Shown here piece after piece: positions 16,427 to 49,341 of a DNA stretch of 64,000 nt. The translations under genes were made by a program, and so were the position numbers. The stretch's first letter is position 1. Each line of letters opens with the position of its first letter. The notes below the pieces were generated by a model. It was not told the origin of the DNA and did no database searches. It saw only the letters and a list, made by a program, of their open reading frames with translations. The stretch comes from Escherichia coli (GTDB lineage: Bacteria; Pseudomonadota; Gammaproteobacteria; Enterobacterales; Enterobacteriaceae): NCBI RefSeq assembly GCF_003991155.1, contig NZ_CP031293.1; one strand, given 5' to 3'.

Positions 16427-16453
16427 TTTGGTACTGGATACAAAGGATAGATA

Positions 16454-31238: not shown

Positions 31239-31338
31239 CTGACTGGGATCGCCGTAGCCTTTAACAGGCTGATTGATAAGCTAAAACAAAAAATCGAGTT
31301 TGTCAAGACCACCAGACTGACCACCATTTTTATTAGCG
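31239..31338 (-). repeat. att-like repeat copy C (tRNA-Asn 3' fragment plus island arm) bounding the defence-like cassette
   Basis: Minus-strand reading: tggtggtcagtctggtggtcttgacaaactcgattttttgttttagcttatcaatcagcctgttaaaggctacggcgatcccagtcagaggagccaaa. The adjacent 31196-31238 matches the hairpin downstream of the tRNA at 6085-6120. Confidence 0.75.
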
Positions 31339-31496
31339 TATATTTTCGCTATGGGCATACTGTCTATTCATTTAACACATGCACGTCTTATTAGAGCGAA
31401 AAGTGTACATTTCAAAAATGCTTTAATAGGATTTCTAGCTATGATGCTAAAGTATCACTACTTTTATGGATATAAACTAGACAGGAATGATGTGTT

Positions 31497-32414
31497 ATGA
31501 AGTCCAGATTTGGACCAAATGGGGTGCATTTATTCGACCGAAATACAGGTCTGAACGTCCTCCTGGAGGAGTTACGCCCAAAGGAATCTGTTTGGTCCAT
31601 TTCTCCACGCCAGGTCTCGATTGCACTTACCAATCTTTGTGACCTTCGCTGCGCACATTGTTTTGCGCCCAAGCATAAGGCATTGCTACATACTGACCAA
31701 GTGCTTACTTGGTTAAAAGAACTGGATACTGAAGGATGCCTCGGTATCGGATTTGGTGGTGGAGAACCAACACTGCATCCTGATTTCGTCGAAATATGTA
31801 AACGGGCTGCTGGGGAAACTCATCTTGCAGTCACATTTACGACTCATGGTCACCGTCTGACCCAGCCATTGGTTAAAAAACTCAAAGGCTCGATCCACTT
31901 TGCGCGCATTAGCGTTGACGGGATAGGTCATACCTACGAAGAACAACGTGGAAGGCAGTTTTCAAGTTTACTCAGAGGCATTGAGTCGATCGCGAAATTG
32001 TCGTCTTTTGGGATCAATGTCGTGATAAACGAGCGTACGATTTTTGAGCTTGACGCAGTGGCTGAGCTGGCGCAACAGTTTGGTGCTAGTGAATTGCTGT
32101 TGTTGCCTCAGCAAGCAACTAATGCAGTCGCAAGTATGGACGAATTGGTCGGCCGAGAGCTTCAAAACTGGGTCTCTAGCTATAGAGGAAAGGTTCGACT
32201 TGCAGTAAGTGAGGTGGGAGCGTCAGGGCTCCCCATATGTGACCCTCTTCCTAATGAAACAGGCCTTCAAGCCTACGCGCATATAGACGCTTCCGGGATA
32301 TTGCGCACGAGTTCTTATTCAACCACAGGTATGGATATTGAAGAAACTGGTGTTATGTCCGCGCTTAAACGGCTTAGAAATACCTTAGAGATTAAACAAG
32401 GGACACAATCATGA
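31497..32414 (+). CDS. Radical SAM enzyme (single 4Fe-4S cluster type, no SPASM extension)
   Basis: 305-aa ORF; CDLRCAHCF (CxxxCxxC, nt 31635-31658), GFGGGEPTLHP (GGEP SAM-binding motif), ARISVDG; stop overlaps the next start (ATGA at 32411-32414). Confidence 0.8.
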   Translation: MKSRFGPNGVHLFDRNTGLNVLLEELRPKESVWSISPRQVSIALTNLCDLRCAHCFAPKHKALLHTDQVLTWLKELDTEGCLGIGFGGGEPTLHPDFVEICKRAAGETHLAVTFTTHGHRLTQPLVKKLKGSIHFARISVDGIGHTYEEQRGRQFSSLLRGIESIAKLSSFGINVVINERTIFELDAVAELAQQFGASELLLLPQQATNAVASMDELVGRELQNWVSSYRGKVRLAVSEVGASGLPICDPLPNETGLQAYAHIDASGILRTSSYSTTGMDIEETGVMSALKRLRNTLEIKQGTQS

Positions 32415-32818
32415 AAATTTGGAACGGATACGGATCTGAGCATTCGATGAACTTAGTTCTCATCGGAAAATTCAAGCAAGAGCAAGATGCAGTGAAGGTC
32501 GAGAAGGATATTAAAACGCTCAGTACTCAGGCTGAGAAAGATGAATGTTACTCGATCCCTTTTGATGAGCCAGAGAATCAACGGTTTTCATATGAAATGC
32601 TCTCATTACTATGCAGCCTAAAACTCCACACTTTAGGACCAACCGATCTTGGTCAATTGGTGTCAGATCATCATCTAGATCGCGAAGGCGATAGAATAAC
32701 AATAACTACTGATGAGGCAGAGGTATCCGCGTTCGTGAAGCTGTTTGTCGAGGCTGGAGCAAAGGTCGAGATTTTCTCAGCGCATGACTATCCGTCCGAT
32801 TCCAGCGATGCCAGTTGA
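32411..32818 (+). CDS. Hypothetical 135-aa protein, translationally coupled between the radical SAM and NTPase genes
   Basis: Start overlaps the radical SAM stop; its own stop TGA overlaps the TTG at 32815. No recognisable motifs. Confidence 0.6.
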   Translation: MKIWNGYGSEHSMNLVLIGKFKQEQDAVKVEKDIKTLSTQAEKDECYSIPFDEPENQRFSYEMLSLLCSLKLHTLGPTDLGQLVSDHHLDREGDRITITTDEAEVSAFVKLFVEAGAKVEIFSAHDYPSDSSDAS

Positions 32819-35800
32819 CAGAGGATGCATTGATGCCTGAAGTAAATTGGAAAGTATTCAACGAACTGCCCGGTGCAGCAGATGTGAACTTCGAAAACCT
32901 TTGCCGCGCTCTGGTACGCCGACACTATGGTCGTTTCGGTCGCTTTAAGCAACTCGCAAATCAGCCTGGGGTGGAGTTTCACCTCGAGCTGACGGAGCCT
33001 TGTGATCTCGGTGCGCCACCAGGTTGGATTGGTTGGCAATGCAAGTGGTATGAACTGGTGAATGGACAAGATTTGGGAGCCTCCCGCCGCAACAAGATCA
33101 TCGAAGGTATCGAAAAGACGCGTAAGCATGTCCCTGGAGTGACCAATTGGAAGCTTTGGACTCATCACACGTTAACAAAAGGTGATCAAGAGTGGTTTTT
33201 CGCGCTAGAGCAAGACCGCTTCCCAGAATTGAAGTTAGAACTGCTCACAGCTACGGATATCGAAGATCTTTTGGTCGGACCGGGAGCGCTTTTACGAGAA
33301 ACCTACTTTGGTGAACTGGTTCTAACTCCAGAGCTAATTGCTGAGCAGTATAAGCTTGCAGTGGCCCCATTTAAGAACCGCTACCAGCCAGATGTTCATG
33401 TAGCGGTGGGGGCTGAGGAGAATATATTCAGGCATCTGTGCAGCCAAAACGCATGGGAATCTCTGGAAGAACTCTCAAACGCTTTAAAAAAGAATCATAC
33501 GAGCATTGCTTCGGTTACTGAGCAACTCAAAACTGAGCTCAGGGCTGAAGTTGAATTACTCCTGGCCCGGGTTATTGGGTTGACTGAGTTTATTGATGGC
33601 TTACACGCGGCGCTCGGCAAAGGTGACTTTAACTCTGTATATCAAGCGTTGGTTTCAAATCCGCGTCAGCCGGTACGTTATGACAGGCTACTTTCGAAAT
33701 TGCGTGGAGCGCGCTTTGACGGGGCTCCGTTAACCGCTAATTTGGTTGCAGATATCCACGCGGTTTCGTCAGTTCTCCGCAGTCTGGAGCAATCGATTAG
33801 TGCTCGGGCGGTTGCTGTTCTTGCGGCGGCGGGGGAAGGTAAGTCTGAACTTGCAGTCAAGGTAACACAGCCAGAAGGGGCGTTCCTAGGGGGAATCCTC
33901 CTATTAGGCAAGAATCTTCATTCAGGCCAGGGGCTTGATGATCTCGTATCTGCCTTCAAGATTTCTGGGAGACCAGCAGAAAGTTTTGACCGCCTGATTG
34001 AGGCCGTAGATGCGGCAGGCCAGCGTGCAGGTAAACGCATACCTATTGTTATTGACGGTCTGAATGAGGCGGAAGATCCGAGAAATTGGAAGGATGAATT
34101 ATCCCGAGTGGATGAGCTTCTAAAGAATTTTCCTTATGTCTTGTTAGTTGTCACTCTTCGCAATGAATTCGCCCAGATGTGTCTGCCTGAGGGGTTTCCC
34201 CAAGTTGAACATAATGGGTTTCAGGAAGATCCGAAGACAGCATTTGACAAGTATTTTGAGTACTACAAGATCGATGCTACTGATGCGGATCTACCAGTCG
34301 AACTCTTGCAGCACCCCTTAACACTGAGAATTTTTTGCGAAGTAGCAAATTCTCCTCGTCAGCATATTGTCGGAGTGGAAGCATTGCCCCGTTCGCTTGC
34401 AAGCCTGTTCGAAGCTCACTTTAACAAGGTTGCAGCACGAGTCGCTGAGCTTTCACCGACGATGCATCGCATTTATCAAGATGACGTTCAGGATGCACTA
34501 CTAACGATCGCGGGTCTTCTTTGGGATAACAATGCGAGAAGTGTGGATTTTCAGGCTACACGGATGGCAGTTCGGGATATGGGGTGGGACGACAGTATTA
34601 TTCGTGCACTGGAGTCTGAAGGCATTCTCGTTCGGACTATTTCTCCAGAAGGTAGGCAAGGAGTTGCGTTTGCATACGACCTAATGGCCGGACATATGAT
34701 GGCGCGCAACCTGCTTATGAAGCCTGAACTGGTGCAATGGCTACAAAGCGATGAAGGGAACGCAAAATTTAAATCTCATGGACCTGATTCGCATACCTTC
34801 GCTTATGACGTATTACGGGCTCTGGTTGATCTGTATCCGCAACACTCTGGTAGGCGGCAGCTTTGGCAAGACTTGTCGGATGATATACTCGTTATGAACG
34901 CTCTGCTATTGACGACGCAATCGGATCCAAGATATATCGGGCGGGCTACTGTTGAACGATTTGCTCAAGCTATGCAGGAGTCGAAGCGGTTTGCACAACT
35001 TGCCTTCGAGAGACTACGGAGCACTAGGGCTGCGCTGGCACATCCGTTTGATATGAGCTTTTTGCATGATGTGCTAATGGCTATGTCCAACACTCAGCGC
35101 GATCTTTTTTGGTCAGAGTGGATTCGTCAGAAATCTGAACAAGTTAAAGACGACTTAAAATTCTTGTCGACGAGATGGAAATCGGGTCATCTGGATGAGC
35201 GTGAACTTCGAAGAGTTCGCTGGGTAATGTGGACACTGACGACGACATCCAGAGCTTTGCGGGATATGGCTACCAAAGCCCTGTATGAATTTGCCATCAG
35301 GCGGCCAGAAGAGTTTTTCCGGTTAGCGACGGAGACAATTGTAGTTTCAGACCCATATGTCCCCGAGCGAGTGTTCGCCGCAGCCTACGGTGCAGTCCTG
35401 ACCACTTGGTCGGATATCGATGCGGTAGAGTTACATGATGCGTTGCCACGGTTCGCTCGTGAGATTTACCAAACCATGTTTGCACCTGGCGCTACAGCCC
35501 CTACCTGGCATGCATTACATCAGCAGTACTGTTTGGGAATCATTGCCATTGCGAGGATGGTCGATCCAAATTGTTTTTCAGAGGACGAAGCTGTTTATCT
35601 TCTTCCGCCATTTAGCCATCTGCCTAACGTATTTGAAAGCATTCAACCGTACGATCCAGAGATGATTGGGCGAGCGGAGAGCGCAGCGATTCAAATGGAC
35701 TTTGGTAACTATACGATTGGTGGACTTATTCCAGACAGAGCGAACTACGATGACAGTAATCCGGAGTACCAACAGGTGTTGCAGGCCATTGTTTCTCGAA

Positions 35801-36891
35801 TGCTGATGCTTGGTTATGACCCTGAGCAGTTTGAAGCTGTTGATCGGCAAATGTACTCCGGTTCTCGTATGGGAGATGACAAGCACAAAATCGATCGATA
35901 TGGCAAAAAGTACGGCTGGATAGCTTACTTCGAGATGTGGGGGATACGATACGCGCAGGGCCTCCTTTCCGAAGAACGCAGTGCTCGCCCATCAGATGCT
36001 GATATCGATCCAACGTTTCCGCAAAAAGTAGAGAGTATTAGTTTGTCACTCCCAGTCTTATTTAACGATCCGTCTGTGGATGATGGTGACTGGATCGTGG
36101 GAGGCCCGCTACCTGACTACCGTAGCATCCTTGAGATTACGGAGGTTGATGGTCTGACGGGGCCATGGATCCTACTTGACGGTTTTGTTGAGCAAAATGC
36201 TACCTCGGATGACCGACAGATTTTCACTTTCCTGCGAGGAGTATTCGTAGATAGCCAAGAAGTTGACAATCTATGTAGGTTGTTCATTGATCTTGAATAT
36301 CCTGGCAATAGCGCCATCCCTGATGCTCCTGGCTACTATTACACCTATGCGGGTGAGATGCCTTTCCCGACTATTCCGGGGCTGCTAGTCGCTAATGAAC
36401 AAGAGGATGATAGCGATGAAAATTTGGTGTTCGCAGAAAGATGGTCAGGCAATGGCGTTGCGGTAGATATCACAGTGCAGGACTACAACTGGGAGAGCTA
36501 CCATAGCGTGGAGAACCAAAGCAGCGGTGCGAGCCTGCCCTCAAAGCAACTTTGTGAGGCTTTGAATCTCAGATACTGTGCAAACAAATGGGATTTGCAT
36601 GATGCTGCAGGTGTAGCGTCACTTTACCGCAAAATTGACGAAAATGGTTCGGACGTCAGTGGCTCTGTCAGCTATCTACGTCGTGATCTACTTGACCGCT
36701 ATTTGATGCAATCCGGTAAGGTATTGGTATGGCTTATGTGGGGAGAGCGTGGTTTTCATTACCGGTCCAACAAGACACGCAATTTGCACAGGTATTACGT
36801 GAATCACCAACATATTCACAAGCGTATTCATATCCATCAGATAGCTTCGAGTACTAGTAACCCAAATATTGCGGATGGAGTCGCTATATGA
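32815..36891 (+). CDS. NACHT-like STAND NTPase with an N-terminal Mrr-like nuclease-fold domain and a long C-terminal region (NLR/Avs-like)
   Basis: 1358-aa ORF (TTG at 32815 or ATG at 32833). N-terminus FENLCRALVRRHYG...EPCDLGAPPGWIGWQCKWY resembles an Mrr-cat type D...QxK nuclease. Walker A VLAAAGEGKSE (nt 33823-33849, aa ~340); Walker B IPIVIDGLNEAED (aa ~410) then LLVVTLR. About 850 aa of C-terminus without enzymatic motifs. Confidence 0.8.
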   Translation: MTEDALMPEVNWKVFNELPGAADVNFENLCRALVRRHYGRFGRFKQLANQPGVEFHLELTEPCDLGAPPGWIGWQCKWYELVNGQDLGASRRNKIIEGIEKTRKHVPGVTNWKLWTHHTLTKGDQEWFFALEQDRFPELKLELLTATDIEDLLVGPGALLRETYFGELVLTPELIAEQYKLAVAPFKNRYQPDVHVAVGAEENIFRHLCSQNAWESLEELSNALKKNHTSIASVTEQLKTELRAEVELLLARVIGLTEFIDGLHAALGKGDFNSVYQALVSNPRQPVRYDRLLSKLRGARFDGAPLTANLVADIHAVSSVLRSLEQSISARAVAVLAAAGEGKSELAVKVTQPEGAFLGGILLLGKNLHSGQGLDDLVSAFKISGRPAESFDRLIEAVDAAGQRAGKRIPIVIDGLNEAEDPRNWKDELSRVDELLKNFPYVLLVVTLRNEFAQMCLPEGFPQVEHNGFQEDPKTAFDKYFEYYKIDATDADLPVELLQHPLTLRIFCEVANSPRQHIVGVEALPRSLASLFEAHFNKVAARVAELSPTMHRIYQDDVQDALLTIAGLLWDNNARSVDFQATRMAVRDMGWDDSIIRALESEGILVRTISPEGRQGVAFAYDLMAGHMMARNLLMKPELVQWLQSDEGNAKFKSHGPDSHTFAYDVLRALVDLYPQHSGRRQLWQDLSDDILVMNALLLTTQSDPRYIGRATVERFAQAMQESKRFAQLAFERLRSTRAALAHPFDMSFLHDVLMAMSNTQRDLFWSEWIRQKSEQVKDDLKFLSTRWKSGHLDERELRRVRWVMWTLTTTSRALRDMATKALYEFAIRRPEEFFRLATETIVVSDPYVPERVFAAAYGAVLTTWSDIDAVELHDALPRFAREIYQTMFAPGATAPTWHALHQQYCLGIIAIARMVDPNCFSEDEAVYLLPPFSHLPNVFESIQPYDPEMIGRAESAAIQMDFGNYTIGGLIPDRANYDDSNPEYQQVLQAIVSRMLMLGYDPEQFEAVDRQMYSGSRMGDDKHKIDRYGKKYGWIAYFEMWGIRYAQGLLSEERSARPSDADIDPTFPQKVESISLSLPVLFNDPSVDDGDWIVGGPLPDYRSILEITEVDGLTGPWILLDGFVEQNATSDDRQIFTFLRGVFVDSQEVDNLCRLFIDLEYPGNSAIPDAPGYYYTYAGEMPFPTIPGLLVANEQEDDSDENLVFAERWSGNGVAVDITVQDYNWESYHSVENQSSGASLPSKQLCEALNLRYCANKWDLHDAAGVASLYRKIDENGSDVSGSVSYLRRDLLDRYLMQSGKVLVWLMWGERGFHYRSNKTRNLHRYYVNHQHIHKRIHIHQIASSTSNPNIADGVAI

Positions 36892-37052
36892 GTTACGACT
36901 TCAGAAATCTTTCATCCGCAAACTTTGAGGATCTTGTGCGGGATCTTATCGAAAAAGAAGAAGGGTTCGCTTCGAAGCATTCTCTGTGGGGGCTGATAAT
37001 GATATTGATGGCCGACACGCACATGCTGGAGGGAATGTCAGTTTATAGGTAA
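36888..37052 (+). pseudogene. Short ORF resembling an Mrr-like N-terminal fragment (possible remnant of a further gene)
   Basis: 54 codons overlapping the NTPase stop (ATGA): MSYDFRNLSSANFEDLVRDLIEKEEGFASKH...; the FEDLV..L motif echoes the N-terminus of the NTPase protein; followed by ~1 kb with no ORF. Confidence 0.3.
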
Positions 37053-38005
37053 AACCTTATGAAGGGGCGTCGTTTAGTATACTGATGGCTATTATGAAGT
37101 GTGAGTGGTTGTCTAAAGATAAGCTAGCCCTCACACGCTGTATCAAGCGACCTCTTGTTAGCTTACTCCAGCTAGCAAGAGTAAACTTTCCCCACTCATA
37201 GGGCTATGTTTGAAGTCCGAGTCGGAAATTGGGGGGCAGAAGACATAAAAGGTCTCCTTAAGAAGTCTTCTTGTCTGTACAAAAACTCTTATTTTGACAA
37301 AGAGCATTGTAGTTATTAACAGGCTGATTAATAAATTTAAAAATAAGTCGTCAGGAACACCAGATTAGCTACCCAAATTCTCATGCCGTGGAAGCGGAAG
37401 AAAAATACTCCCCTGAATATCTTCATATCGGATATACATAATAAGCTTGAGGTTGTATATTTGAAGAATTGAGTAGCCAGAGCCTTGTTGACATAAAGCG
37501 ACACGAACAACATGTTACTTAAAATATCACGAGTATATATTCAGACTTGTTTATGTTGCGACATGGATTCTACAGGCAGCTGGCTGAAACAGTGAGTCAG
37601 AAAAATTTACAGGAGCGCCATAGTCATTAATGGATATCCGTAATATGCTGATGCAAAAGGGTAAGGAGTTTGCCGGTAATCTGCGGTGTTAGACGACAAT
37701 TACAAAACGACCTTAGGCGTCAATTACCGCTGAAAAAAGTGACAGATCACTTTCTATAAAATGCTGCCGTATGACCGACAGATTTATTCCGCTTTATAGC
37801 CATGACTGTTCGGTGCTCACTTCGCTGCGCTCCGCCTCAGTCCTGCCTAAAAAGCGTTGCAGGTTAGTTTGTATCGGCCTAATGAAAGGCTGTTTTAGCG
37901 AAGCGTAAATGTGACATCTTATCTGGTCTAATCTCTTTGCGATAATTGACGCAAAAGCATGGGCTGTAATTGTCACGCAATACTGCGGCAAGTCTCATGA
38001 TGATG

Positions 38006-38100
38006 CCTCTGACAGGGATCTCCGTAGCCATTAACTGGTCGATTGGTAAGCTAAAACAAAAAAATTGAATTTGTCAAGACAGCCATAATGACTACCATTT
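38006..38100 (-). repeat. att-like repeat copy D (degenerate), internal boundary of the composite island
   Basis: Minus-strand reading: tggtagtcattatggctgtcttgacaaattcaatttttttgttttagcttaccaatcgaccagttaatggctacggagatccctgtcagagg; the tRNA-derived end is truncated and diverged. Confidence 0.65.
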
Positions 38101-38264
38101 TCGTCTCTGCTTTTCCATCCTGAAATTAATGGCTATCATATTCGCAATAGACAACATCATCTTACTTGCACTCAACTATAACTAATGCTGAGTGCAAGAA
38201 ACGGGGATTATATCCCCTATCAAGGACCTGTTGAAATATTAGTCTGGAATTTCGAGGCTGTAAT

Positions 38265-38789
38265 TTAAATTGCTCCATTTGCCTTAGCATCAAGAATGAA
38301 TTTTTCATACTCGCGTTCTGCAACAACAACAGGGACTGTTTTGCGATTATATAATTGCATTAATAACAATGTACGATGCCTTCCATCAGAAACACCAAAT
38401 TCACTGTTAGATGCCTCTGGATATTCAACATACCCTTTTGATATATATTTTTTGATTTTATGCCATCTACGCGGATCAATGCAGAATGCTCCATCTCCTA
38501 ATTTTTTAAGAAAGGCTAGCCCATCGACATATACAATCCTGGTAGGACAATGCCGATAGCGTACAGGAAGGGTAAAGATAATATTTTCAAAAACAGGGAA
38601 AGTAAGACCTGAATCATCTTTAGGTATTGACTCAAAGGAATCAAAAGGATATTTTGTCATGTAATCATTTAGTTTTTCAATATCCATATTGGAAAACCAC
38701 GATACTTCCGGGAGAAATTTTTTATCTCTTTCTCTAATTTCTTTGATCGAATCTCCAAATATATCATCTAACCTCCACCCCTCTTTCAT
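38265..38789 (-). CDS. Hypothetical protein with a DGxHR motif (ParB/Srx-like fold suspected)
   Basis: 174-aa AT-rich ORF; ...EFGVSDGRHRTLLLMQL... resembles the DG(Q/H)HR core of ParB-like nuclease-domain proteins; last gene of the orphan Rhs array. Confidence 0.4.
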   Translation of the reverse strand: MKEGWRLDDIFGDSIKEIRERDKKFLPEVSWFSNMDIEKLNDYMTKYPFDSFESIPKDDSGLTFPVFENIIFTLPVRYRHCPTRIVYVDGLAFLKKLGDGAFCIDPRRWHKIKKYISKGYVEYPEASNSEFGVSDGRHRTLLLMQLYNRKTVPVVVAEREYEKFILDAKANGAI

Positions 38790-38833
38790 TTATGCTCCTA
38801 AAATAATGTGATATTAAAAATTCTGTTAATAAG

Positions 38834-39349
38834 TCAAATTTTATGAATACTAATAAGGGGTTTGCACCACTCAACCGAGAGAATATCTTCCATTTTATAA
38901 AAAACGCCATAATCACTTTGATTATAATGCTCAATTTTATCAGCCATTTGTAATCTAATTTTGTCTTTGTAAATTCTACTTCGGATCAAACTGGCGAAAT
39001 TATATATATCAACCCTCAGATTGATAATATTATTTCTATCTGGGCGTCTTTCATGTAACATATCACGAAAAGAAACAAGTAACGTAATTAATTTTTTAGC
39101 CTCATTATTTTTAATATATCCTTTTTTAAAGATGCATAATATTAATTTTGAAATTAAGCTGATTTTTATTTGTAAATTATAGATAGCATTATCGTTTGTC
39201 AGGCAGGTTATGACTTCAATTACTTCACGTGAGCGAATATAATTGTCCAGTGCTTCCCATTCATCCATTCCTCGATGCATTGAAAGTTCCAATTGCCTTA
39301 AAAAAGCATATAACCCCAATAAGAAGTCGCTATTGCAGTATATTTTCAT
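38834..39349 (-). CDS. Putative immunity protein for Rhs fragment B
   Basis: 171-aa AT-rich ORF overlapping by 4 nt the stop of the Rhs C-terminal fragment. Confidence 0.5.
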   Translation of the reverse strand: MKIYCNSDFLLGLYAFLRQLELSMHRGMDEWEALDNYIRSREVIEVITCLTNDNAIYNLQIKISLISKLILCIFKKGYIKNNEAKKLITLLVSFRDMLHERRPDRNNIINLRVDIYNFASLIRSRIYKDKIRLQMADKIEHYNQSDYGVFYKMEDILSVEWCKPLISIHKI

Positions 39350-40835
39350 GAATCACATCCTTTAATAAAACTCATTATTCGTGACCAAAAAGAGTCTTTT
39401 TTGTATATAGGGTTTTTATCGTTTAATGGTAAAGGATCGTCTGTTGGTATAACGGCTGTATTTCTTGGCCCAACATTTGTTTTAGTAAGTGAATCTTTGG
39501 AAGCATCAAACTCTACATAAGAACCATTCTTCCATGCCCCTGTTTCTGCACCTGCCGTTTTAGGATCTCCAAATGGCTCCACCTCAACGTGTACACCAAC
39601 AGGATTGCCTCTGGCAGGGTTGATAGACCCATCCTTGCTAATTCCATCAATACCCTCTGTTGAAGTATGATGTCTAACTCTAACAGTATCGTCACCAGTT
39701 AACCCTAACGGATCAATAATTTTTAGCGGATTAAATACATATCCATACAGGCAATCCCCACCTCTCAGCCCCATCGGATCAGCACACAGATACTGCCCCG
39801 TATCGCAATCATAATACCTGAATCGGTTATAGTACAGGCCTGACTCAACATCCTCGTACTGCCCCGGAAAACGTAACCGGCATGTGGGCGCATCTTCTTT
39901 ACTGATGCCTTCCTCACGCCCCCAGAGCTGCTGCTTGCCTTTCCAGACTATCAGACCCTCTTCGGTCAGCAGTTCTTGTACGCGGCCAGTTGTGTCTGTT
40001 ACCGCATAATGCAGTTGCCCCTTTTCATAACGCGCAAACGGCGTGAAATCTCCCGGCTCGTATATCCAGCGGATGGCGTTTTCATCTTCCGGTTTGCCGT
40101 CAGCGCCAACCGGAATTTCCGCCGTCAACTGGTCGCCGTTCCAGTGAAAATCCATGCCGCGTTTGTCGCGGCTGGTACAGCGCTTGCTGATGCGCCTGCC
40201 GAACGGGTCATACTTATATTCCCAGCGTTCGCCCTCCGGTGTTTCCAGTCCGGTCAACTGGCTGCGTGCATCCCATTTATAACGCCATTCCAGTGGGCGA
40301 TAACCCCCTTTATCCACCAGTTTCTGTACCAGCCTGCCGTTAACATCATATTTCCAGGTGATGTTGTGCGCATTCACCACCCGGACAAATCTCCCGTCTT
40401 CCCCTTTTCCGGTGTCCGGGTTGATGCGATGCGTCGAGTGCCGCCAGCCTTCATGTTCCCGCGATACCACACGACCATGCTGCTGTTGCTGGTGCGTCTC
40501 GCTTTCCAGTACGTTATTCACCCTGATCTGGCGACGGGTAATGTTCAGGTTTTTATCGTAAGTGAACAGCTCCTCGCACAGCGGAAACTGGCTGGAATCA
40601 CCCGTCCAGGTGGCGTGGCTTATCTGGTCGTTTGCCGTGATGGTGTTGAACATGGAGCCGCGCAGCGAGTCGGCGATTGCGGTGAGGTTATACGCTTTGT
40701 CGTAGCTTCGCTGCGTCGGGAGGTTTCCATGCCGCACAGGTCGTGCTCAAATGTCAGCGGGGCATGGTCCGCTATTCGCCATGACGTAAGATGCCCCATC
40801 AGGTCGCGGGTGAAGCGTTCTGTGATACCCTCAGC
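39346..40835 (-). pseudogene. 5'-truncated Rhs fragment B (last ~350 aa of core plus a distinct C-terminal toxin tip)
   Basis: ORF 39346-40737: ...GLYYNRFRYYDCDTGQYLCADPMGLRGGDCLYGYVFNPLKIIDPLGL then a unique ~120-aa tip. DNA 39690-40835 is homologous to 10150-11340 of the main Rhs gene, with a frame disruption near 40700-40760. Confidence 0.8.
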
Positions 40836-40850
40836 CTGTAATTTTACAGG

Positions 40851-41303
40851 TTAAATGGGGAATTTTTCTTCAATGAGCTTCAAGCCAAGTAATGCCATAT
40901 CATGAATATCTTCATCATGCGATTGAGCCGAAATTTTCAACCCGTTTACCATTCTTTTATCTGGGAAAGACATTGTTAATATAGTACACCAAAGCCTAAC
41001 GCTTTTTATTGTGTTAGGATTTTCGAGTATGTTAACGATATTTATAACAACATCATTAAAATCACACTTATAGAGAAAATCCTCAACAATTTGATATACT
41101 CCAAGACCATCACCCTCACCAAAAGATCGCAAAAATAAAGGTATTGCATCTTTATCGGGATGGGAAAGAAAGTAAATTCGTACCTCATCGTATTTATCTA
41201 TAAGATCCTGAGTAATATCACAATCCGCGGGCATTGGTTGATGTAGTGACAGGAACTCTAATGCTTCTTTTTTATTCATATTCATATATTTAATGATTCC
41301 CAA
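40851..41303 (-). CDS. Putative immunity protein for Rhs fragment A
   Basis: 150-aa ORF immediately 3' of Rhs C-terminal fragment A. Confidence 0.5.
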   Translation of the reverse strand: MGIIKYMNMNKKEALEFLSLHQPMPADCDITQDLIDKYDEVRIYFLSHPDKDAIPLFLRSFGEGDGLGVYQIVEDFLYKCDFNDVVINIVNILENPNTIKSVRLWCTILTMSFPDKRMVNGLKISAQSHDEDIHDMALLGLKLIEEKFPI

Positions 41304-41763
41304 AGTTTTTTATTCTGTCTGGCTAACTCATATAGTTGTTCAGTGATGACCTTTTTATCATAGCCTGCATTTGTTAAGATTTTTCTTAGGTCATCTATAT
41401 CCCTTTTCAAATATTGTTCTTTTGTCAAACCTCGAACAAATGCTCGTCTGAATGTCCAGGTAAGAGCATGTAAATCTTTACGCAGATTTATCGTAATTCC
41501 CTTACATTTTGTTGTGGGGCTTACCGCATCCTGAATGGCATGATGAGGTGTATGAGTTGCATTAAGCCCTGTTTTACCATTCGCATAAATTGAAGAACCA
41601 TATGTACCAACGTATAAATCTTCTCCTGGACCAGCTAACAATCCCAAGGGATCAATCCATACCAGTGGATTTGGAGCGTAATTGTAAAGGTTTACTCCCC
41701 CCGACAGTCCAATCGGATCAGCACACAGATACTGTCCTGTCTCGCAATCATAGTACCGGAACC
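41282..41763 (-). pseudogene. Rhs C-terminal fragment A, truncated at its 5' end by IS3 copy 2
   Basis: ORF 41282-41812 runs into the IS; ...YRFRYYDCETGQYLCADPIGLSGGVNLYNYAPNPLVWIDPLGL then a unique ~130-aa tip. Confidence 0.8.
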
Positions 41764-43013
<1,250 letters not shown>

Positions 43014-43016
43014 CCA

Positions 43017-43385
43017 CTACAATGAGAGCATAAGTACACCTGCCGTCATTTCTGGTACGGCAACGCCCCCCGGTGTATAAGCTGTCCCGTTAATGATGAT
43101 GTCACAGGCGGGTTTCAGGGGGGCGAGGTCGCTTTCGCGCAGTACCGGAGATGTGTTCATCTCCCCGGCATACTCATCTTCCACACACAGCGGTAGCGGC
43201 GGGTTTTCGATAAGTTGGGTTTGCCACTGACCATTTTCGTCCCGTTGCAGCCGGAAGCCCGTTTTCATGGCGATAACGCGGTGACGTTCGCTATGTTTAT
43301 CATCCATCGCATATTCTATCGCTGAAAACGGCGTCAGGTTACGAAATTCCATATTGCACCCCGATCCCGTCTGTACCTGTCGCAA
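43017..43385 (-). CDS. Hypothetical 121-aa protein (possible effector-associated adaptor); last codons now replaced by IS sequence
   Basis: MEFRNLTPFSAIEYAMDDKHSERHRVIAMKTGFRLQRDENGQWQ...; the reading frame runs 5 nt into IS copy 2. Confidence 0.5.
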   Translation of the reverse strand: MRQVQTGSGCNMEFRNLTPFSAIEYAMDDKHSERHRVIAMKTGFRLQRDENGQWQTQLIENPPLPLCVEDEYAGEMNTSPVLRESDLAPLKPACDIIINGTAYTPGGVAVPEMTAGVLMLSL

Positions 43386-43964
43386 AACATAATTCTACAG
43401 ATGGCACAGTATCCCCCTGATACAGGTAAAAACTTATTTCACGGAAACCGGCATAGCAAACTGGATGACACAATACCGGGCAAAACGATAAGTATGGTTA
43501 CTATATGAAACGGAATACTCCCGTTTCGTATTATTTTTTTTGACTGATATCAACGGGACGAATTAACTGACAGGATATTTACTGGAAAGTGTCTGCATAT
43601 TGCTCAATATATTTTTAATGGAAATGTATTCTCCATTAATATTTATGGTGTGATTGTGTTTCCCTGTGTGTCAGCTTCCGCTAAACCCCTTGCTGCAAAT
43701 TACCGATCATTGTATTGTTGCGCCGCGCCTGCAAAATCAGGCGTCGGGATTGGAACCCTGATAAGTGTTACAGGCGACATATAGCGCATTTTGCGTCTTT
43801 TTTATGTCGTGCGTCTGGCTGCATCTCAATGGTGGGCTGGACGGGGGCGTCGCAAGACGCGCCGGTTTCCTGTAACACCGGTAGTTCCAACCCCGTTCAG
43901 TTCACCACCAATGAGATTGGAACCTCTGGTGGTGGAATTACCACCCGTTACAGGAGGCTATCCT

Positions 43965-44426
43965 ATGGTTATCATCCTTTCCCCTGACTGCGACTTACTT
44001 TCCATCCCCTTCAGTGCCACCACGGATTTCACCGATCTGGCCGACTACTGCGATCGCTTCGCTGAAACCCTGATCGAATGCCACGATCCGGCGCTGAAAA
44101 TGGCGCTTTATGGCAGGATCAACGCCAGCCTTGCGCTGCTGCGTCCCTCGTTGGGCGAGCCGATCCCGCTGCACCTGATCGACCGTTTCATTGTGGACAC
44201 GCTTCCCGACGTTTCACCGCGCTTTGAACCCGGCGCAGGGCTGCTCTGTGACTACTGTCTGGCGCTGACGCAGGTATTAAGCGGGCGGTCGCTGCTGCCG
44301 GAAACCGAAACCACACTGACCGGGTTGCTGTGCGAACTGGTCTGGTATTTTGCCGCCGACCTTAAAGCGCCGCAGTGGCTGCGCACCGCTGATGGCTTAC
44401 AGGTTATTGACGGGGGGACGGTATGA
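43965..44426 (+). CDS. Hypothetical protein of the P4-like module
   Basis: ORF 43791-44426; probable start at 43965 (MVIILSPDCDLLS...) preceded by AGGAGG at 43952-43957. Confidence 0.5.
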   Translation: MVIILSPDCDLLSIPFSATTDFTDLADYCDRFAETLIECHDPALKMALYGRINASLALLRPSLGEPIPLHLIDRFIVDTLPDVSPRFEPGAGLLCDYCLALTQVLSGRSLLPETETTLTGLLCELVWYFAADLKAPQWLRTADGLQVIDGGTV

Positions 44427-44677
44427 TGCAACCGGACTGGCATCCCGCCGATATCATGGCAGCACTGCGAAAACGTGGTACGTCGCTGGCAGCGGTTTCC
44501 CGCAAAGCGGGACTGGCGTCCGCCACACTGGCAAACGCGCTGAGCCGCTCCTGGCCGCGTGGCGAAAAACTCATTGCGGATGCGCTGGAAACATCACCGG
44601 AAATTATCTGGCCGTCCAGATATTTCGATGATCAGGGCAACCGTATTGTAAGGCTCATGCGAAAGCAGTGCTCCTGA
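44423..44677 (+). CDS. Ner/Nlp-family small DNA-binding regulator
   Basis: 84 aa: ...WHPADIMAALRKRGTSLAAVSRKAGLASATLANALSRSWPRGEKLIADALETSPEIIWPSRY... Confidence 0.7.
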   Translation: MMQPDWHPADIMAALRKRGTSLAAVSRKAGLASATLANALSRSWPRGEKLIADALETSPEIIWPSRYFDDQGNRIVRLMRKQCS

Positions 44678-44826
44678 TGACAGAAGTGTCAGAAACACGA
44701 TTACAGTAAAATCAGGCTCTCCCGGCTCTCTGCCTGCTTCTGCTGGCGGAGAGCCGGGAGAAGACAAGCGAAGCGCGGCAGGATGCCATCCCGCTGTTGA
44801 TAACAGTCACAACCGGAGTCGTTTTT

Positions 44827-45099
44827 ATGCACATGTTTAATCCACCCCATCCGGGTGACGTCCTTCGCGATTATCTGGACGGCGTGAGCATCACGCAGGC
44901 CGCTTCCCGGCTTCAGGTATCGCGCTCGCGGTTATCCCGTATCCTCAATGGACATGCACCAGTGACGGCTGATATGGCGCTACGTCTGGCGGCGCTGCTG
45001 AATACCCGCGCTGAACTGTGGACGGGGATGCAGTCTGAGTATGGCCTCTGGCAGGCGTCACAAAAACCACGACCCGTTATCCGGTCATTGCGGGGTTAA
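44827..45099 (+). CDS. HigA/VapI-like HTH (XRE-family) protein
   Basis: MHMFNPPHPGDVLRDYLDGVSITQAASRLQVSRSRLSRILNGHAPVTADMALRLAALL...; no partner toxin ORF found. Confidence 0.65.
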   Translation: MHMFNPPHPGDVLRDYLDGVSITQAASRLQVSRSRLSRILNGHAPVTADMALRLAALLNTRAELWTGMQSEYGLWQASQKPRPVIRSLRG

Positions 45100-45864
45100 C
45101 TCAGCATTTTACATTCACAAATACACGATAAAATCAGGGGGAAAACCAATATCCAGAAAAATGAGTTTCCCCTTTCTGCGCCAGAAATAACGGTGTAATC
45201 TCCCTCCTGCATTGTCGCCTTCGGGCACCCTTTGGCTTCATGGTCTGCAAGAAGCCCCTGATTTATCAGGATGACCAGCCCTTACTACCGGTACGACCTC
45301 CGCAATACCGGAACGCGAAAGCGTTTGAGGCTAAGAGTACATACACCCGAACGGCTTCATCGTCATTGCTTAACGGCAACAGTCTTCACCGGCTGAACGG
45401 CTTTTCTTTGCCGGAATTTCCCGACTGCCCCATACCCAGCTGAAAACAGCGCCCTTTACATGACGGGCTGCGGCCTGCATTGCCGTCAGGCTTTGCTGCC
45501 GCGTGACCGTCATTCTGCACCAGAAACGCAACGTTTACCCCCTGCACCAGATGAGGCGTCACTTTGGTCGCGCCAGCGAAAAAGCAAAGTGACGCCGTAC
45601 AACATACCGCCGCAAGCCGCGCCAGTTCTGGCCTGCGTCCTGTTTCCGCCGTCTGACATGCCCTTTGGGGCGCTGTCAGTCCAGAGTAAAGGAGAAAAAG
45701 ATCGATACCGAGGGGGGCACGACGCCCCGGAGATACCCCTGCTTCGTCAGGCAGTCTGTACCGCGTACAGCCTGAAACTCCCTAAACCTCAACAATCAGC
45801 CACTCCGGCGTGAAGGTATCGTTCTGGCGCAGCCAAAAAGCACACGCCGGAGACTGTTTGTTTT

Positions 45865-46767
45865 TTGTTGCAGGGGGTAGTTATGAGCAAATTAAGCAGT
45901 GAAATGAAGGCGCTGGCGAAAAAAGCAGGCGGTAGTTTCAGAACGGTGGACTACCGTATCCATGCCACGAAGCGGTTCAGTCAGCATTTACGCGAACTGA
46001 ATATTCAGATCCAGCGGGTGGAGCAGATCAAAGTTCGCCATATCGAATGCTATATTCAGGAGCGGCTGGAGCAGGATATTGGCCTGCGCACGCTGCAAAA
46101 CGAAATGGCGGCGCTGCGGGCCGTGCTGAGGCTGGCGGGACGCCGGCAGGTGGTGGAGCATCCGCGCCTGACCAATAAGGCGCTGGGGCTGTCAGGTGCT
46201 TCGCGCAACGGCACGCGTCGCGCCATCACGCCGGAACATTATGAAAAAGTGATGGAGAACGCCCGCGCACAGGATGCGGGGCTGGCGGCAGCGGTGGAGA
46301 TCGCGCGACTGATGGGATTACGCTCGCAGGAGGCGGTACAGAGTTCACAGTCGCTGAAAACGTGGCTGAAAGCCATTTCCCGCGGCGAAACCCGGCTGAA
46401 AGTGGTGTTTGGCACCAAAGGCGGGCGTCCGCGTTACACGACGCTCCTGGACGCTGGCGCAGTCAGGAAGGCGGTGGAAAACGCATTACCGATCGCCAGA
46501 CAGCGCAATGGCAGGCTGATCGACAAGCCAGACCTTAAAACGGCGCTGGAGAGCTGGCACAAACAGGCCATTAAGGCGGGGCTGAAAGGGGAATTTTCCC
46601 CGCACTCGCTGCGTTATGCGTGGGCGCAGGACGCGATCCGCCATTATCTGGCGCAGGGATTCAGCGAAAAGGAATCGCTGGCGCTGACGGCGACGGATCT
46701 GGGTCATGGCGACGGTCGCGGCCGCTGGGTGAAACAGGTGTACGGCTACCGCTGGAAGGAGGAATAA
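45865..46767 (+). CDS. Integrase-like protein (putative tyrosine recombinase domain)
   Basis: 300-aa ORF; C-terminal ...FSPHSLRYAWAQDAIRHYLAQG...VYGYRW has an R/H/Y arrangement suggestive of a recombinase catalytic region. Start may be MSKLSSEM (45883). Confidence 0.45.
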   Translation: MLQGVVMSKLSSEMKALAKKAGGSFRTVDYRIHATKRFSQHLRELNIQIQRVEQIKVRHIECYIQERLEQDIGLRTLQNEMAALRAVLRLAGRRQVVEHPRLTNKALGLSGASRNGTRRAITPEHYEKVMENARAQDAGLAAAVEIARLMGLRSQEAVQSSQSLKTWLKAISRGETRLKVVFGTKGGRPRYTTLLDAGAVRKAVENALPIARQRNGRLIDKPDLKTALESWHKQAIKAGLKGEFSPHSLRYAWAQDAIRHYLAQGFSEKESLALTATDLGHGDGRGRWVKQVYGYRWKEE

Positions 46768-46841
46768 CGGCTTTCATGAATGGCGCAAAATAGTACGTTA
46801 CTGCGTAACGACAGCGATTTATCGTACCCTCTGTACCGGAT

Positions 46842-47520
46842 CTGGCGCAGGGGGCGAGCGGGTTTGTATTGTGAAAATATCGTTACAGCATGACGAATAA
46901 ATATCAATAGCTCAGATTTTCCTGCTGAACCAATGTAGCTCGCCGGAATATTATAGTGATTACCCGGTAATCACTCGAAACGATCCCGATTAATAGCTGG
47001 TGTTTCAATCGTTTTACCGATATTACAGGTACAGGGTCGGGAAATTTTAAAATGTAAACTCACCGAGGCATCACATTAATTCTGGCGCAGGATTATATCT
47101 GAATAATTCTCTCTGTGTTTTCCTGCATCCTGTGACATATATTGCATGGTCACAGAATGTCTCATGATTTTATAAAAAATGCTGCGACGGTTTTTGACAT
47201 CATAACCTGCTGCATATAGATTAATAATTTTCGGTGCTTCATGTTATTTTTTTGCGCTCTGTGATCGTTATCTGGTGGTGAAAATACAATCTGGTGCAGA
47301 CTGTCATGGTGCATTTCTGAATAAACTGGTTGCGCCAGAAAGGGAAAGGGCCATAAAGGTTAAGGGGCGATAAGGGTAACAGCGCCTGACCGGAAAGGGC
47401 CGAAAACCAAAGAGCCAGAAACTGGCGCAGTCCTGAATGTGTGAAGTGGCGAGACGCTGGCGCAGATAACCGATCTTCCGGGGCTGGTGCAGATTATTTC
47501 GTCTCTGTATATCTGGTGCA
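46842..47520. repeat. Iteron-like direct repeats CTGG(C/T)GCAG (at least 7 copies) in a 1.2-kb non-coding region
   Basis: Copies near 46842, 47082, 47291, 47422, 47455, 47483, 47512; short palindromes at 46964-46982 (gtgattacccggtaatcac) and 47129-47155. Confidence 0.6.
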
Positions 47521-47625
47521 GTTATAATATGTATCAGGGAAGGCTGTCCGGTATTTTATGACGCCTCTTTTAGAGTATATTAATTGGTATTTCCGTGAAA
47601 ATATCGCTTATTGATAGTTTTTCAT

Positions 47626-47655
47626 CTTCCGTGATTAACGCGTTAATCACGGAAG
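47626..47655. promoter_or_regulatory. Perfect 30-bp palindrome (operator-like) upstream of the integrase
   Basis: cttccgtgattaacgcgttaatcacggaag; followed by a second inverted repeat acctatcaa(N11)ttgataggt at 47662-47690. Confidence 0.55.
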
Positions 47656-47841
47656 ACTGTTACCTATCAAAAAAAGATATATTGATAGGTAACGGTCAAA
47701 TTTTATTTGGGGCCAAATAATTGTAGATACTTTCCGATTGGTAATAAAAAAGAACAACGGCAATACCTCTCAATACAAAAAAGCAGATCCCGGCCAATCA
47801 GGATCTGCTTTTCCATTTTAATGATTTCAGCTATTTATGAC

Positions 47842-49104: not shown

Positions 49105-49265
49105 TTGGGGGTCACTCCAGAATCGAACCAAACTGACCCCAGATCTGACCACCAAATTATCCCGATGCGGAGAGAAAATTAGATACGCACCGGGAAGGAT
49201 TTTCACGCTAACTTACTGAATCGTAAACAAATAGAGACGCATAGATAAGCATGAAAACTTGAATT

Positions 49266-49341
49266 TGGCTCCTCTGACTGGACTCGAACCAGTGACATAC
49301 GGATTAACAGTCCGCCGTTCTACCGACTGAACTACAGAGGA
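49266..49341 (-). tRNA. asnW: tRNA-Asn (GTT)
   Basis: Reverse complement is identical to the tRNA-Asn at 6009-6084; lies between the integrase and yeeO. Gene symbol from recalled K-12 synteny. Confidence 0.9.

Follow-up and report, generated by a model that had tools for sequence, protein, structure and literature searches.

Probable remainder of a T6SS Rhs effector operon at an Escherichia coli asnW island, with two predicted toxin tips and their candidate immunity genes

In a 64,000-nt stretch of Escherichia coli contig NZ_CP031293.1 (the window), an island of ~11 kb at tRNA-Asn (asnW) carries at its distal end an array that the sequence supports as two C-terminal Rhs toxin fragments, each with a small ORF behind it that behaves as its cognate immunity gene (Table 1). 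We read this locus as the 3′ remainder of a T6SS effector operon that has become, in one lineage of E. coli, a decaying store of toxin and immunity genes, and put the probability of this reading at about 0.78. Neither toxin is deliverable as encoded, because the array has no PAAR domain and no complete Rhs cage. The analysis demonstrates the anatomy of the locus, the folds of the toxin domains and, for each tip, a conserved association with the gene behind it; the locus itself is ordinary, since the end of a T6SS Rhs toxin–immunity operon is a well-known kind of locus.

Table 1. Features of the Rhs array and its surroundings, in positions of the window.
Feature	Position	Strand	Basis or remark
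Degenerate att-type repeat	38006..38101		Distal end of the island
ORF3	38265-38789	minus	174 aa
Immunity B	38834-39349	minus	171 aa; ORF coordinates
Rhs fragment B	39346-40835	minus	Intact ORF 39346-40737 (463 aa)
Fragment B, tip B toxin domain (117 aa + stop)	39346..39699	minus	ADP-ribosyltransferase fold, closest to TreTu
Fragment B, Rhs core (RHS/YD repeats and core end to DPLGL)	39700..40704	minus	blastn, Pfam, NCBIfam
Fragment B, 5′ core piece (~42 codons)	40705..40835	minus	blastn and sequence reading
Immunity A (144 aa)	40851..41285	minus	RefSeq CDS and sequence; RefSeq start 41285, ORF 40851-41303
Rhs tip A	41282-41763	minus	ORF 41282-41812, Rhs-derived from 41763
Tip A, toxin domain (118 aa + stop)	41282..41638	minus	Probable TseN-class DNase
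Tip A, core-end remnant (42 codons, RFRYYD...PLVWIDPLGL)	41639..41763	minus	TIGR03696; junction read from sequence
IS3 copy 2, complete (1258 bp)	41764..43021	plus	Self-comparison and junction reading; RefSeq
DUF2169 T6SS adaptor gene, N-terminal 110 codons	43022..43352	minus	Truncated by IS3; RefSeq

The genes follow each other on the minus strand in the order tip A, immunity A, fragment B, immunity B and a further small ORF (ORF3), as an earlier note on this DNA had described, and the coordinates agree with the ORFs. GC content is 54–57% in the Rhs core and drops to 25–38% across tips and immunity genes. When the window's four tips are aligned pair by pair with BLASTP, the alignments stop at the Rhs core end, the only part that the tips share, and the four small ORFs downstream of the tips have no significant mutual similarity; both comparisons had been proposed in the earlier note, and its count of at least four distinct Rhs tips in the window holds. 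Several traits of orphan cassettes are present: the variable C-terminal domains are unlike those of the other rhs genes of the genome, a small candidate immunity gene lies directly downstream of each tip, and tip A and fragment B are each a 5′-truncated rhs fragment that keeps the core end and PxxxxDPxGL motif. No complete rhs gene is found in the array's island, and the typical orphan context (downstream of, and co-oriented with, a main rhs) is absent. Searches of Pfam, NCBIfam, PADLOC, PHROGs and PDB sequences return no match for tips A and B, immunities A and B or ORF3 beyond the Rhs core parts, and the two tips of the first island (island 1) have no Pfam match either.

In tip A, the Rhs core is reduced to a short remnant: TIGR03696 (Rhs_assc_core, NCBIfam) covers aa 13–58 of the ORF (E = 6.5e-15), the translated motif PLVWIDPLGL precedes the toxin domain, and IS3 cuts the core at 41763/41764. 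The toxin domain is probably a TseN-class DNase, as predicted from its fold, which has the three-stranded sheet and helices of TseN-CT, and from its conserved residues. All invariant residues of the family are present (T28, H29, H32, H33, Q36, N51, H57, T60 and T62), and in an hhalign comparison of family profiles (E = 4e-4, with a probability of only 35%) H57 pairs with H254, the catalytic histidine of TseN, and H29 with H203. Foldseek and sequence searches with tip A do not recover the TseN link. Identity to TseN of the TseN–TsiN pair of Acidovorax (Paracidovorax) citrulli (PDB 9J9W; PMC12574953) is ~14%, detectable by structure and profile comparison only. Tip A sits on an Rhs end, whereas TseN is a FIX-motif effector with a nucleolar localisation signal, and immunity A has neither a family match nor sequence similarity to TsiN or to any solved protein. 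The ATG of immunity A overlaps the tip A stop codon (ATGA). In locus L004 (61% identity, E = 2e-55) and in loci L005–L007 (38% identity, E = 5e-30), a homologue of tip A has one of immunity A directly behind it, so that, by homologue synteny, pair A recurs in two unrelated contexts. Immunity A would neutralise tip A.

Judged by its fold and motifs, tip B is a probable TreTu-type ADP-ribosyltransferase, dependent on NAD. It has the split β-sheet of the ADP-ribosyltransferase (ART) fold, and its motifs RVRHHT, GVHVEVEPFG, YVEFD and GPRNTAVIP are intact. TreTu, the C-terminal toxin of Salmonella Rhs-main (TreTu–TriTu; PDB 7ZHL/7ZHM; PMC9825190), is likewise a small (~115 aa) ART-fold Rhs tip and shares the motif YVEFD-P-E-x-LVPTN; identity is 23% over 84 residues and the sequence signal is weak (E = 0.7). 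For the NAD-binding and catalytic residues, tip B was compared with TreTu R6, E12, S25, H31, F41 and W68. R9 (RxRHHT), H37 (GVHVE) and F43 (PFG) are conserved, and a strand-1 Arg, a strand-2 His and a Phe just after it come in the order of TreTu R6, H31 and F41; both order and spacing resemble TreTu, which makes these residues candidate equivalents. E15 of tip B is not conserved within its family, and TreTu E12 has no conserved equivalent. The tip B family differs from TreTu, an enzyme that modifies EF-Tu, in having an RHHT motif that recalls the H-H-h clade (CC0527, Tpt1). Immunity B is unrelated in sequence to TriTu. Its start codon shares bases with the stop codon of fragment B (ATGA), and L008 (E = 2e-34), L018 (E = 2e-23) and L017 (E = 1e-5, with the tip B homologue on a full-length Rhs) each have an immunity B homologue behind one of tip B; pair B thus recurs, by homologue synteny, in three unrelated loci. 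Immunity B would neutralise tip B. The earlier claim that the two tips each come with an immunity-like gene is borne out, as far as sequence can tell, by the ATGA overlaps and by the recurrence of both pairs in unrelated loci. Amid housekeeping genes, too, there are tip B homologues that stand alone with a small ORF behind them.

Tip B is carried by a much longer piece of Rhs core, ~390 codons in all. In fragment B, aa 241–346 match RHS repeats and Rhs_assc_core (NCBIfam), Pfam RHS and RHS_repeat are matched as well, and the translated core ends in PLKIIDPLGL. With blastn, 39769–40704 matches positions 10161–11096 of the window's main Rhs gene (78.1% over 936 nt, E = 0) and 40705–40829 matches 11212–11336 (87.2%, E = 8e-39). 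This homology is far beyond chance, and the two matches make up the ~1.1 kb of shared core (39690–40835 against 10150–11340) of the earlier note. Between them, at 40704/40705, fragment B lacks 115 bp of the main gene (11097–11211). Since 115 is not divisible by 3, the upstream piece of 42 core codons, which begins ~20 nt past the immunity A stop, is out of frame with the 463-aa ORF that begins at a GTG at 40737. The gap is the frame disruption that had been noted near 40700–40760 in a fragment of ~350 aa of core plus tip B.

Should fragment B recombine with a full-length rhs, its best partner would be the intact PAAR-like Rhs just outside the window rather than the window's main Rhs. The core is 87–88% identical to the Rhs cores just outside the window. 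With the PAAR-like Rhs (87%) it shares exact tracts of 50, 49 and 41 nt, all downstream of the deletion junction. With the window's main Rhs (78%) the longest useful exact tract is 20 nt, and the only longer one, of 39 nt, lies upstream of the frameshifting deletion. Fragment B and the PAAR-like Rhs lie ~45 kb apart in inverted orientation, so re-arming fragment B would need a ~45-kb inversion; no genome shows a rearrangement of this kind joining the two.

The array is bounded upstream, at tip A, by a complete IS3, on whose far side lie the first 110 codons of a DUF2169 gene. This copy, annotated in RefSeq as "IS3 family transposase, programmed frameshift", has TG...CA terminal inverted repeats and a two-ORF frameshifted transposase and differs by 1 base from copy 1 of the window (13995–15252). 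Neither copy has a 3-bp target-site duplication, the flanks being ACC / ATG for copy 2 and ATG / CAT for copy 1, which indicates IS-associated deletion or recombination and not simple insertion. The DUF2169 fragment is 90% identical to aa 1–110 of a 393-aa DUF2169 protein that precedes the PAAR-like Rhs in the same genome; we take this fragment as the head, and the array as the tail, of one operon. At the island's other end, tRNA-Asn (49266–49341) stands alongside a degenerate integrase pseudogene with an internal stop. The att-type repeat of ~95 nt at 38006–38101 is shared with 3578–3674, 16831–16927 and 31234–31330, and these last three begin with a partial tRNA-Asn 3′ end.

Tip A has only 125 nt of core for recombination (longest exact tract 31 nt), and no full-length Rhs gene carrying it is found among E. 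coli genomes. With 42 core codons left, abutting a complete IS3 with a truncated DUF2169 gene beyond, it fits a beheaded Rhs gene better than a classic orphan with a recombination handle. Of the "orphan array" of the earlier note, fragment B is a classic orphan cassette; the term does not fit tip A. Tip A may have been either the main-gene tip of the island or an upstream orphan.

A model for the lost parts is present in the same genome. Just left of the window, beside a full T6SS cluster, lies the intact operon vgrG – DUF2169 – PAAR-like Rhs – immunity – orphans (WP_077249119.1; L016), with a gene order equal to the one inferred here and with Rhs cores 87–88% identical to that of fragment B. 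By comparison, the window copy, on a separate tRNA-Asn island, has no vgrG, two thirds of DUF2169 are missing, and the PAAR-like domain and nearly the whole Rhs cage are gone. A complete DUF2169 – PAAR-Rhs operon comprises the adaptor, a PAAR or PAAR-like domain and a closed Rhs cage; left here are DUF2169 aa 1–110 and, of the core, the final 42 codons in tip A or ~390 in fragment B. The original order would have been DUF2169 adaptor, PAAR-Rhs toxin, immunity, orphan toxin and immunity. The complete IS3 would now occupy the place of the remaining DUF2169 sequence and of nearly all of the Rhs gene, with tip A and immunity A surviving, followed by a classic orphan cassette of fragment B, tip B and immunity B. 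Both immunity genes may still guard against relatives deploying toxins of the tip A or tip B kind, and recombination with the intact PAAR-like Rhs, whose 3′ end lies ~8 kb left of the window start, could re-arm fragment B.

The closest described arrangement is rhs-main / rhs-CT-orphan of Salmonella Typhimurium LT2 (STM0291/STM0292; PMC3967940, PMC7043789), which belongs to a T6SS PAAR-Rhs system and in which a 5′-truncated rhs likewise keeps the core end to PxxxxDPxGL with a different tip and its own immunity gene. Recombination between orphan and main Rhs has been shown in Salmonella (PMC3967940). Here, in contrast, the upstream full-length gene has been destroyed by IS3, and fragment B is 78% identical to the window's main gene, not 95% over 522 bp, with the frameshifting 115-bp deletion and its best partner far off and inverted.

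Among 5,426 complete E. coli genomes, the locus is present in 21–23, all copies being at least 99.9% identical. Within these genomes, tips A and B are confined to this one lineage and are never on a deliverable Rhs. Two genomes match only to window position 40511 and have neither the tip A–immunity A pair nor the 5′ portion of fragment B, and IS3 stands at this break point in the one of the two that was examined; in other genomes the whole array was lost by IS3 × IS3 deletion. We considered the arrangement of AR Bank #0349 (main Rhs – IS3 – DUF2169′) as the ancestral one. It would pair the DUF2169 fragment with the island-1 Rhs; its flanks match (ATG on both sides), with an implied gap of only ~1.2 kb. 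It is not the simpler history and was rejected, because strain CS6L has the island-1 junctions in the native mtfA–asnT–...–yeeJ context and because AR Bank follows directly from a deletion between two IS3 copies in direct orientation. This history does not account for the 3-bp ATG match, which chance would give in 1 of 64 cases.

The further small ORF downstream of immunity B exists as described in the earlier note, and its homologues place it outside the toxin–immunity cassettes. ORF3 has 54 homologues of 112–298 aa in Enterobacterales and Vibrionaceae, situated in plasmid ParA, recombinase or RelB-ParE regions and in one ICE and never adjoining Rhs; it has no counterpart in the related cassettes L004–L008 and no match in Pfam, PADLOC or PHROGs. 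ORF3 belongs to a conserved family of plasmid/ICE backbone genes and lies within the island, and these contexts, with its absence from related cassettes, led us to reject it as a third immunity gene or toxin. Its DGRHR motif might suggest something ParB/Srx-like, a reading that no tool supports.

The state of the locus also bears on whether it has any present role. One might regard the array as non-functional debris, a recently inactivated operon drifting to loss in which neither toxins nor immunity genes do anything. The IS3 truncation, the frameshifting deletion, the degenerate integrase, the further IS3-associated deletions in sub-lineages and the restriction to so few genomes all suit this idea, which we nevertheless hold unlikely: there are four consecutive intact ORFs with all conserved residues, and the wide retention of such cassettes in other species would be left unexplained. 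It is also compatible with our preferred reading, which already describes a decaying locus. To the same doubtful degree, only the immunity genes might matter, guarding against neighbours that deliver these toxins while the toxin fragments hitch-hike. Both immunity ORFs are full length relative to their homologues and both toxin genes lack delivery parts, as would be expected, and a report on Rhs systems (PMC10539506) describes orphan immunity genes that protect against non-self effectors. Local attackers are not evident, however, given that no complete E. coli genome has either tip on a deliverable Rhs, and the toxin domains, though free to decay, show no decay of their own. The near-identity of all copies makes the lineage too young to show selection either way.

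Less probable still is that the cassettes are live, internally expressed toxin–antitoxin-like modules, in which each tip is made in the cell and checked by its immunity protein, stabilising the island or modulating growth. Such activity has been shown for Salmonella main and orphan Rhs, where the internal promoter P2, found in E. coli too by its authors (PMC7043789), drives Rhs-CT/immunity expression. Both tips and both immunity genes are intact with every family-invariant residue, the start/stop overlaps suggest translational coupling, and the tip B homologues amid housekeeping genes stand alone. Moreover, an ORF from GTG 41812 in the IS3 end continues into tip A without a change of frame, and the IS3/tip A junction is spanned by a promoter-like match (GTGCCA-16-TATGAT, 41774–41747). 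P2 itself is not conserved, however: fragment B has AGGATG / TATAAC in its place and tip A has the IS3 end. Promoter-like matches are not above those of shuffled sequence (20 against 15.3 ± 3.7 expected), a terminator scan of the region likewise finds no enrichment over shuffled sequence, and the annotated ORF of fragment B starts at a GTG without an obvious ribosome-binding site. Tip A and immunity A were lost together in two genomes and the whole array in others, so any addiction would be weak. A bolder version, in which IS3 made a self-standing pair (an IS3-end ORF fused in frame with a DNase domain of the TseN class, under a hybrid IS3/Rhs promoter and translationally coupled to immunity A, as an addiction module for the asnW island) and tip A represents a large un-annotated DNase family across Gram-negative Rhs and Gram-positive PT-HINT/YD toxins, strikes us as very improbable.

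Taken as the decaying end of a T6SS effector operon, the locus adds no new concept, since orphan Rhs cassettes are a well-described means of storing and swapping contact-dependent toxins. Its value lies in annotation. An un-annotated E. coli Rhs tip family would be linked to the TseN DNase class, described in 2025, and a second tip family to TreTu-type ADP-ribosyltransferases, while two immunity families are defined through conserved synteny. As tips A and B and immunities A and B have no Pfam or NCBIfam family, they are candidates for new family models. Within one lineage, moreover, the stepwise dismantling of a T6SS effector operon by IS3 is visible.

The minus-strand gene order proposed in the earlier note matches the ORF coordinates that we find (see table): two Rhs tips, A and B, each followed by an immunity-like gene, and a further small ORF (ORF3). 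NCBIfam and Pfam detect the Rhs core end both in tip A and in fragment B (which carries tip B), with RHS repeats additionally in the latter. RefSeq labels the region, in turn, as hypothetical, hypothetical, 'RHS repeat domain-containing protein', hypothetical, 'RHS repeat-associated core domain-containing protein' (a pseudogene, N-terminus missing), IS3 transposase and 'DUF2169 domain-containing protein'. GC content drops from ~55% in the core to 25–38% in the tips and immunity genes. The suggested core homology between fragment B and the main Rhs gene of the first island resolves into two aligned blocks, 39769-40704 against 10161-11096 (78.1% identity) and 40705-40829 against 11212-11336 (87.2% identity). 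The 115 bases separating these blocks in the main gene are missing from fragment B, resulting in the frame disruption that had been noticed, because this gap is not a multiple of three. The window's four tips were said to be distinct, and indeed their pairwise alignments are confined to the core end, while the four downstream ORFs are mutually unrelated. Orphan Rhs arrays of this type have been described from Salmonella and E. coli, and nothing in the present one lies outside known biology; it differs from those arrays in lacking a main gene (lost to IS3) and in carrying an internal deletion.

Coordinates of the array and of the surrounding island features
Feature	Position	Strand	Basis or remark
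Tip A ORF	41812/41763-41282	minus	ORF reading
Immunity A	41285-40851	minus	ORF reading
Fragment B	40737-39346, plus out-of-frame leader back to ~40835	minus	ORF reading
Immunity B	39349-38834	minus	ORF reading
ORF3	38789-38265	minus	ORF reading
Main Rhs, first island	9795-13883
IS3 copy 1	13995-15252
IS3 copy 2	41764-43021
tRNA-Asn	6009
tRNA-Asn	49266	minus
tRNA-Asn	51090
~95-nt repeat	3578-3674; 16831-16927; 31234-31330		partial tRNA-Asn 3′ end at start: GATCCCAGTCAGAGGAG, 2 mismatches
~95-nt repeat	38006-38101		tRNA part degenerate
isrK and C4 antisense RNA	43725-43912		Rfam
EFASI RNA	45697-45825		Rfam

The claim of an immunity-like gene behind each tip is supported by gene overlaps and by homologous tip/ORF pairs elsewhere. 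Each immunity gene has a start codon that shares bases with the stop codon of the tip before it (ATGA). Immunity A homologues are found immediately 3′ of tip A homologues in a fragmented PAAR-DUF6531-Rhs gene (locus L004; 61% identity, E = 2e-55) and in a multi-cassette Rhs array (L005-L007; 38%, E = 5e-30). Homologues of immunity B follow tip B homologues on a plasmid-like contig (L008; E = 2e-34), in a non-Rhs fusion beside integrases (L018; E = 2e-23) and in a full-length 1039-aa Rhs protein (L017; E = 1e-5). The two immunity proteins represent two unnamed families, and a PDB search shows no sequence resemblance to any solved protein; we infer that they neutralise the adjacent tips.

The further small ORF is indeed present 3′ of immunity B, but it does not belong to the cassettes. 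ORF3 (174 aa) is part of a well-conserved family of mostly 171–196 aa, whose invariant positions include AFCIDPRRWH and the G-x-H-R-x-L-L inside a near-invariant DGRHRTLLLMQ motif, which seems to resemble the DGxHR motif of ParB/sulfiredoxin-fold domains. No library searched, Pfam included, returned a match. Its relatives (L010-L013) reside in plasmid ParA/recombinase/RelB-ParE regions and in one ICE, and in the neighbourhoods examined they are never found beside Rhs cassettes, which rules out ORF3 as a third cassette. ORF3 is island cargo.

The tip A domain (118 aa) has no match in Pfam, NCBIfam or PDB sequences. Its 32 homologues occur in Cronobacter, Lonsdalea, Shewanella, Pseudomonas, Clostridium and Metabacillus, fused to Rhs DPxGL ends, PT-HINT modules or Gram-positive YD-type ends, and share ten invariant positions (T28, H29, H32, H33, Q36, A38, N51, H57, T60 and T62). 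We compared this family with a profile of TseN, a DNase toxin of Acidovorax citrulli, built with the TseN homologue sequences from the supplement of PMC12574953. The profiles align over 73 columns (E = 4e-4), pairing T-H29-T-P with D-H203-T-P of TseN and D-L-H57-A-L with D-I-H254-A-L. Mutation of H254 abolishes TseN toxicity and DNase activity (PMC12574953), and the alignment of H57 to this residue makes tip A a probable TseN-class DNase.

The tip B domain (117 aa), likewise without a family annotation in Pfam or NCBIfam, has relatives in 194 representative clusters (exhaustive profile search). In every protein much longer than the domain (up to 3268 aa), the match runs to the C-terminus or stops a few residues short of it; of six long carriers examined, five are Rhs/YD proteins. 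The motifs conserved in the family (R-x-R-H-H-T, G-V-H-V-E and P-F-G) appear in the same order as R6, H31 and F41 of TreTu, the C-terminal ADP-ribosyltransferase (ART) toxin of Salmonella Rhs-main (PMC9825190), although TreTu E12 has no conserved counterpart in the tip B family. Tip B is probably an NAD-dependent ART-fold toxin. Both tips would probably be new members of toxin classes only recently characterised (TseN, 2025; TreTu, 2022). Stand-alone proteins of ~110 aa are numerous among the tip B relatives, frequently with a W-W-x-F-W tail, and at least one (P0051 contig) is followed, amid housekeeping genes, by an ORF of 181 aa. This hints that the ART domain may also exist as a free toxin-antitoxin-like pair outside Rhs systems.

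The head of the operon is missing. Tip A adjoins a complete, 1258-bp IS3 (copy 2), a direct repeat of the copy adjoining the first island's Rhs gene (copy 1), from which it differs by one base. Both copies lack a target-site duplication (flanks ATG|IS|CAT for copy 1 and ACC|IS|ATG for copy 2), so both underwent IS-associated rearrangement. ATG stands both to the left of copy 1 and to the right of copy 2, and these two flanks are the pair around the single IS3 of strain AR Bank #0349; the agreement might be coincidental (1 in 64) or reflect an older history. On the right-hand side of copy 2, a DUF2169 gene is represented by its first 110 codons. These share 90% identity with a DUF2169 protein of 393 aa that the same genome encodes intact, flanked by vgrG and by a PAAR-like Rhs gene (1472 aa), after which come immunity and orphan cassettes. 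This operon directly adjoins a full T6SS cluster a short way left of the window. In STEFF_1, the corresponding locus (L016), about 7–24 kb left of the window start, holds a complete cluster (tssB, C, E, F, G, J, K, tagH, hcp, vgrG), this operon in intact form (DUF2169–PAAR-like Rhs–immunity) and another two orphan cassettes. The genome thus has no fewer than seven different Rhs tips within about 65 kb, grouped around tRNA-Asn genes. In the simplest reading, the original island order would have been DUF2169–PAAR-Rhs–immunity A–orphan B–immunity B, from which IS3 would then have deleted everything between DUF2169 codon ~111 and the final 42 Rhs core codons. The main Rhs of the first island also lost its 5′ end to IS3 and lacks its PAAR-like head; the 111 nt between it and copy 1 (13884-13994) encode a match to residues 119–138 of the PAAR-like Rhs. 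Beyond copy 1, the opposite strand (15464-16717) carries a freestanding 87-aa PAAR gene along with an ORF of 320 aa.

The window is chromosomal E. coli DNA. Its region 37000-44000 has a full-length match in 21 of 5,426 complete genomes (≥99.9% identity; e.g. STEFF_1, MRY15-117), and decay of the array continues in related genomes. In strain 980-2, an inverted IS3 sits within fragment B, with tip A and immunity A lost; the match in UID2309220003 ends at the same point (window 40511). In AR Bank #0349, one IS3 links the first island's Rhs to the DUF2169 fragment, and the 27.8 kb between, array included, are missing. This arrangement was set aside as an ancestor and is read as a deletion derivative, because strain CS6L (L015) keeps the first island in its native mtfA-asnT-yeeJ setting.

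The ~95-nt repeats are read as distal att-type ends of islands inserted at tRNA-Asn genes. They would then bound four or more islands in the window and its surroundings, with the array at the distal end of an island of ~11 kb at asnW (38006-49266). An integrase pseudogene adjoins the tRNA-Asn at 49266, followed by HigA, HTH and ash genes. The isrK and C4 RNAs lie 5′ of and divergent from the DUF2169 fragment, overlapping an 'ash family' gene, with EFASI further right; all belong to the island backbone and are regulatory RNAs of a typical P4/prophage-like type. Rfam also matches isrC inside both IS3 copies. A second island in tandem at asnW (31234-38006) is read from its bounding partial tRNA-Asn repeats. 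It has no integrase and encodes a radical-SAM protein with partial PADLOC pVip (prokaryotic viperin) matches (E = 5e-20), a DUF6375 gene and a 1358-aa Avs2 STAND NTPase defence gene (E = 8e-116); the viperin-like gene adjoining Avs2 is a possible subject in its own right. Between Avs2 and the att-type repeat lies a 1.1-kb AT-rich stretch (36892-38005; GC 38–44%), in which ORFs do not exceed about 60 aa and Rfam finds nothing. At the first island (3715-6084), cbl and nac lie left of the tRNA-Asn, upstream of yeeJ, in this lineage; in CS6L, the tRNA-Asn carrying this island comes after mtfA, as in K-12. This suggests that cbl-nac moved via recombination between tRNA-Asn copies.

Lacking both a PAAR domain and a complete Rhs cage, the locus as encoded can deliver neither toxin. 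Orphan cassettes can serve by recombination into a full-length rhs gene (PMC3967940). With the window's truncated main Rhs, fragment B shares only one exact tract longer than 20 nt (39 nt), upstream of the frameshifting deletion; with the intact PAAR-like Rhs outside the window, the shared exact tracts measure 50, 49 and 41 nt and lie downstream of it. The latter two genes are in inverted orientation, and re-arming would therefore need an inversion, of which there is none among 23 genomes. Tip A retains only 125 nt of core. Orphan cassettes can also be expressed internally, in a toxin-antitoxin-like manner, from a P2 promoter (PMC7043789). Fragment B does not retain the P2 hexamers, and for tip A the position is taken by the IS3 end. 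In the stretch 41747-41812 (minus strand), an ORF that starts at GTG 41812, within the left end of this IS3, reads in frame into tip A, and a weak sigma-70-like match (GTGCCA, 16 nt, TATGAT; a consensus match only) spans the IS3/Rhs junction, its −10 hexamer being made up of the Tyr-Asp codons conserved in the RYYD motif of Rhs. The array is best read as a decaying toxin/immunity store, in which the immunity genes may still be useful and fragment B is possibly a spare tip, albeit an inefficient one.
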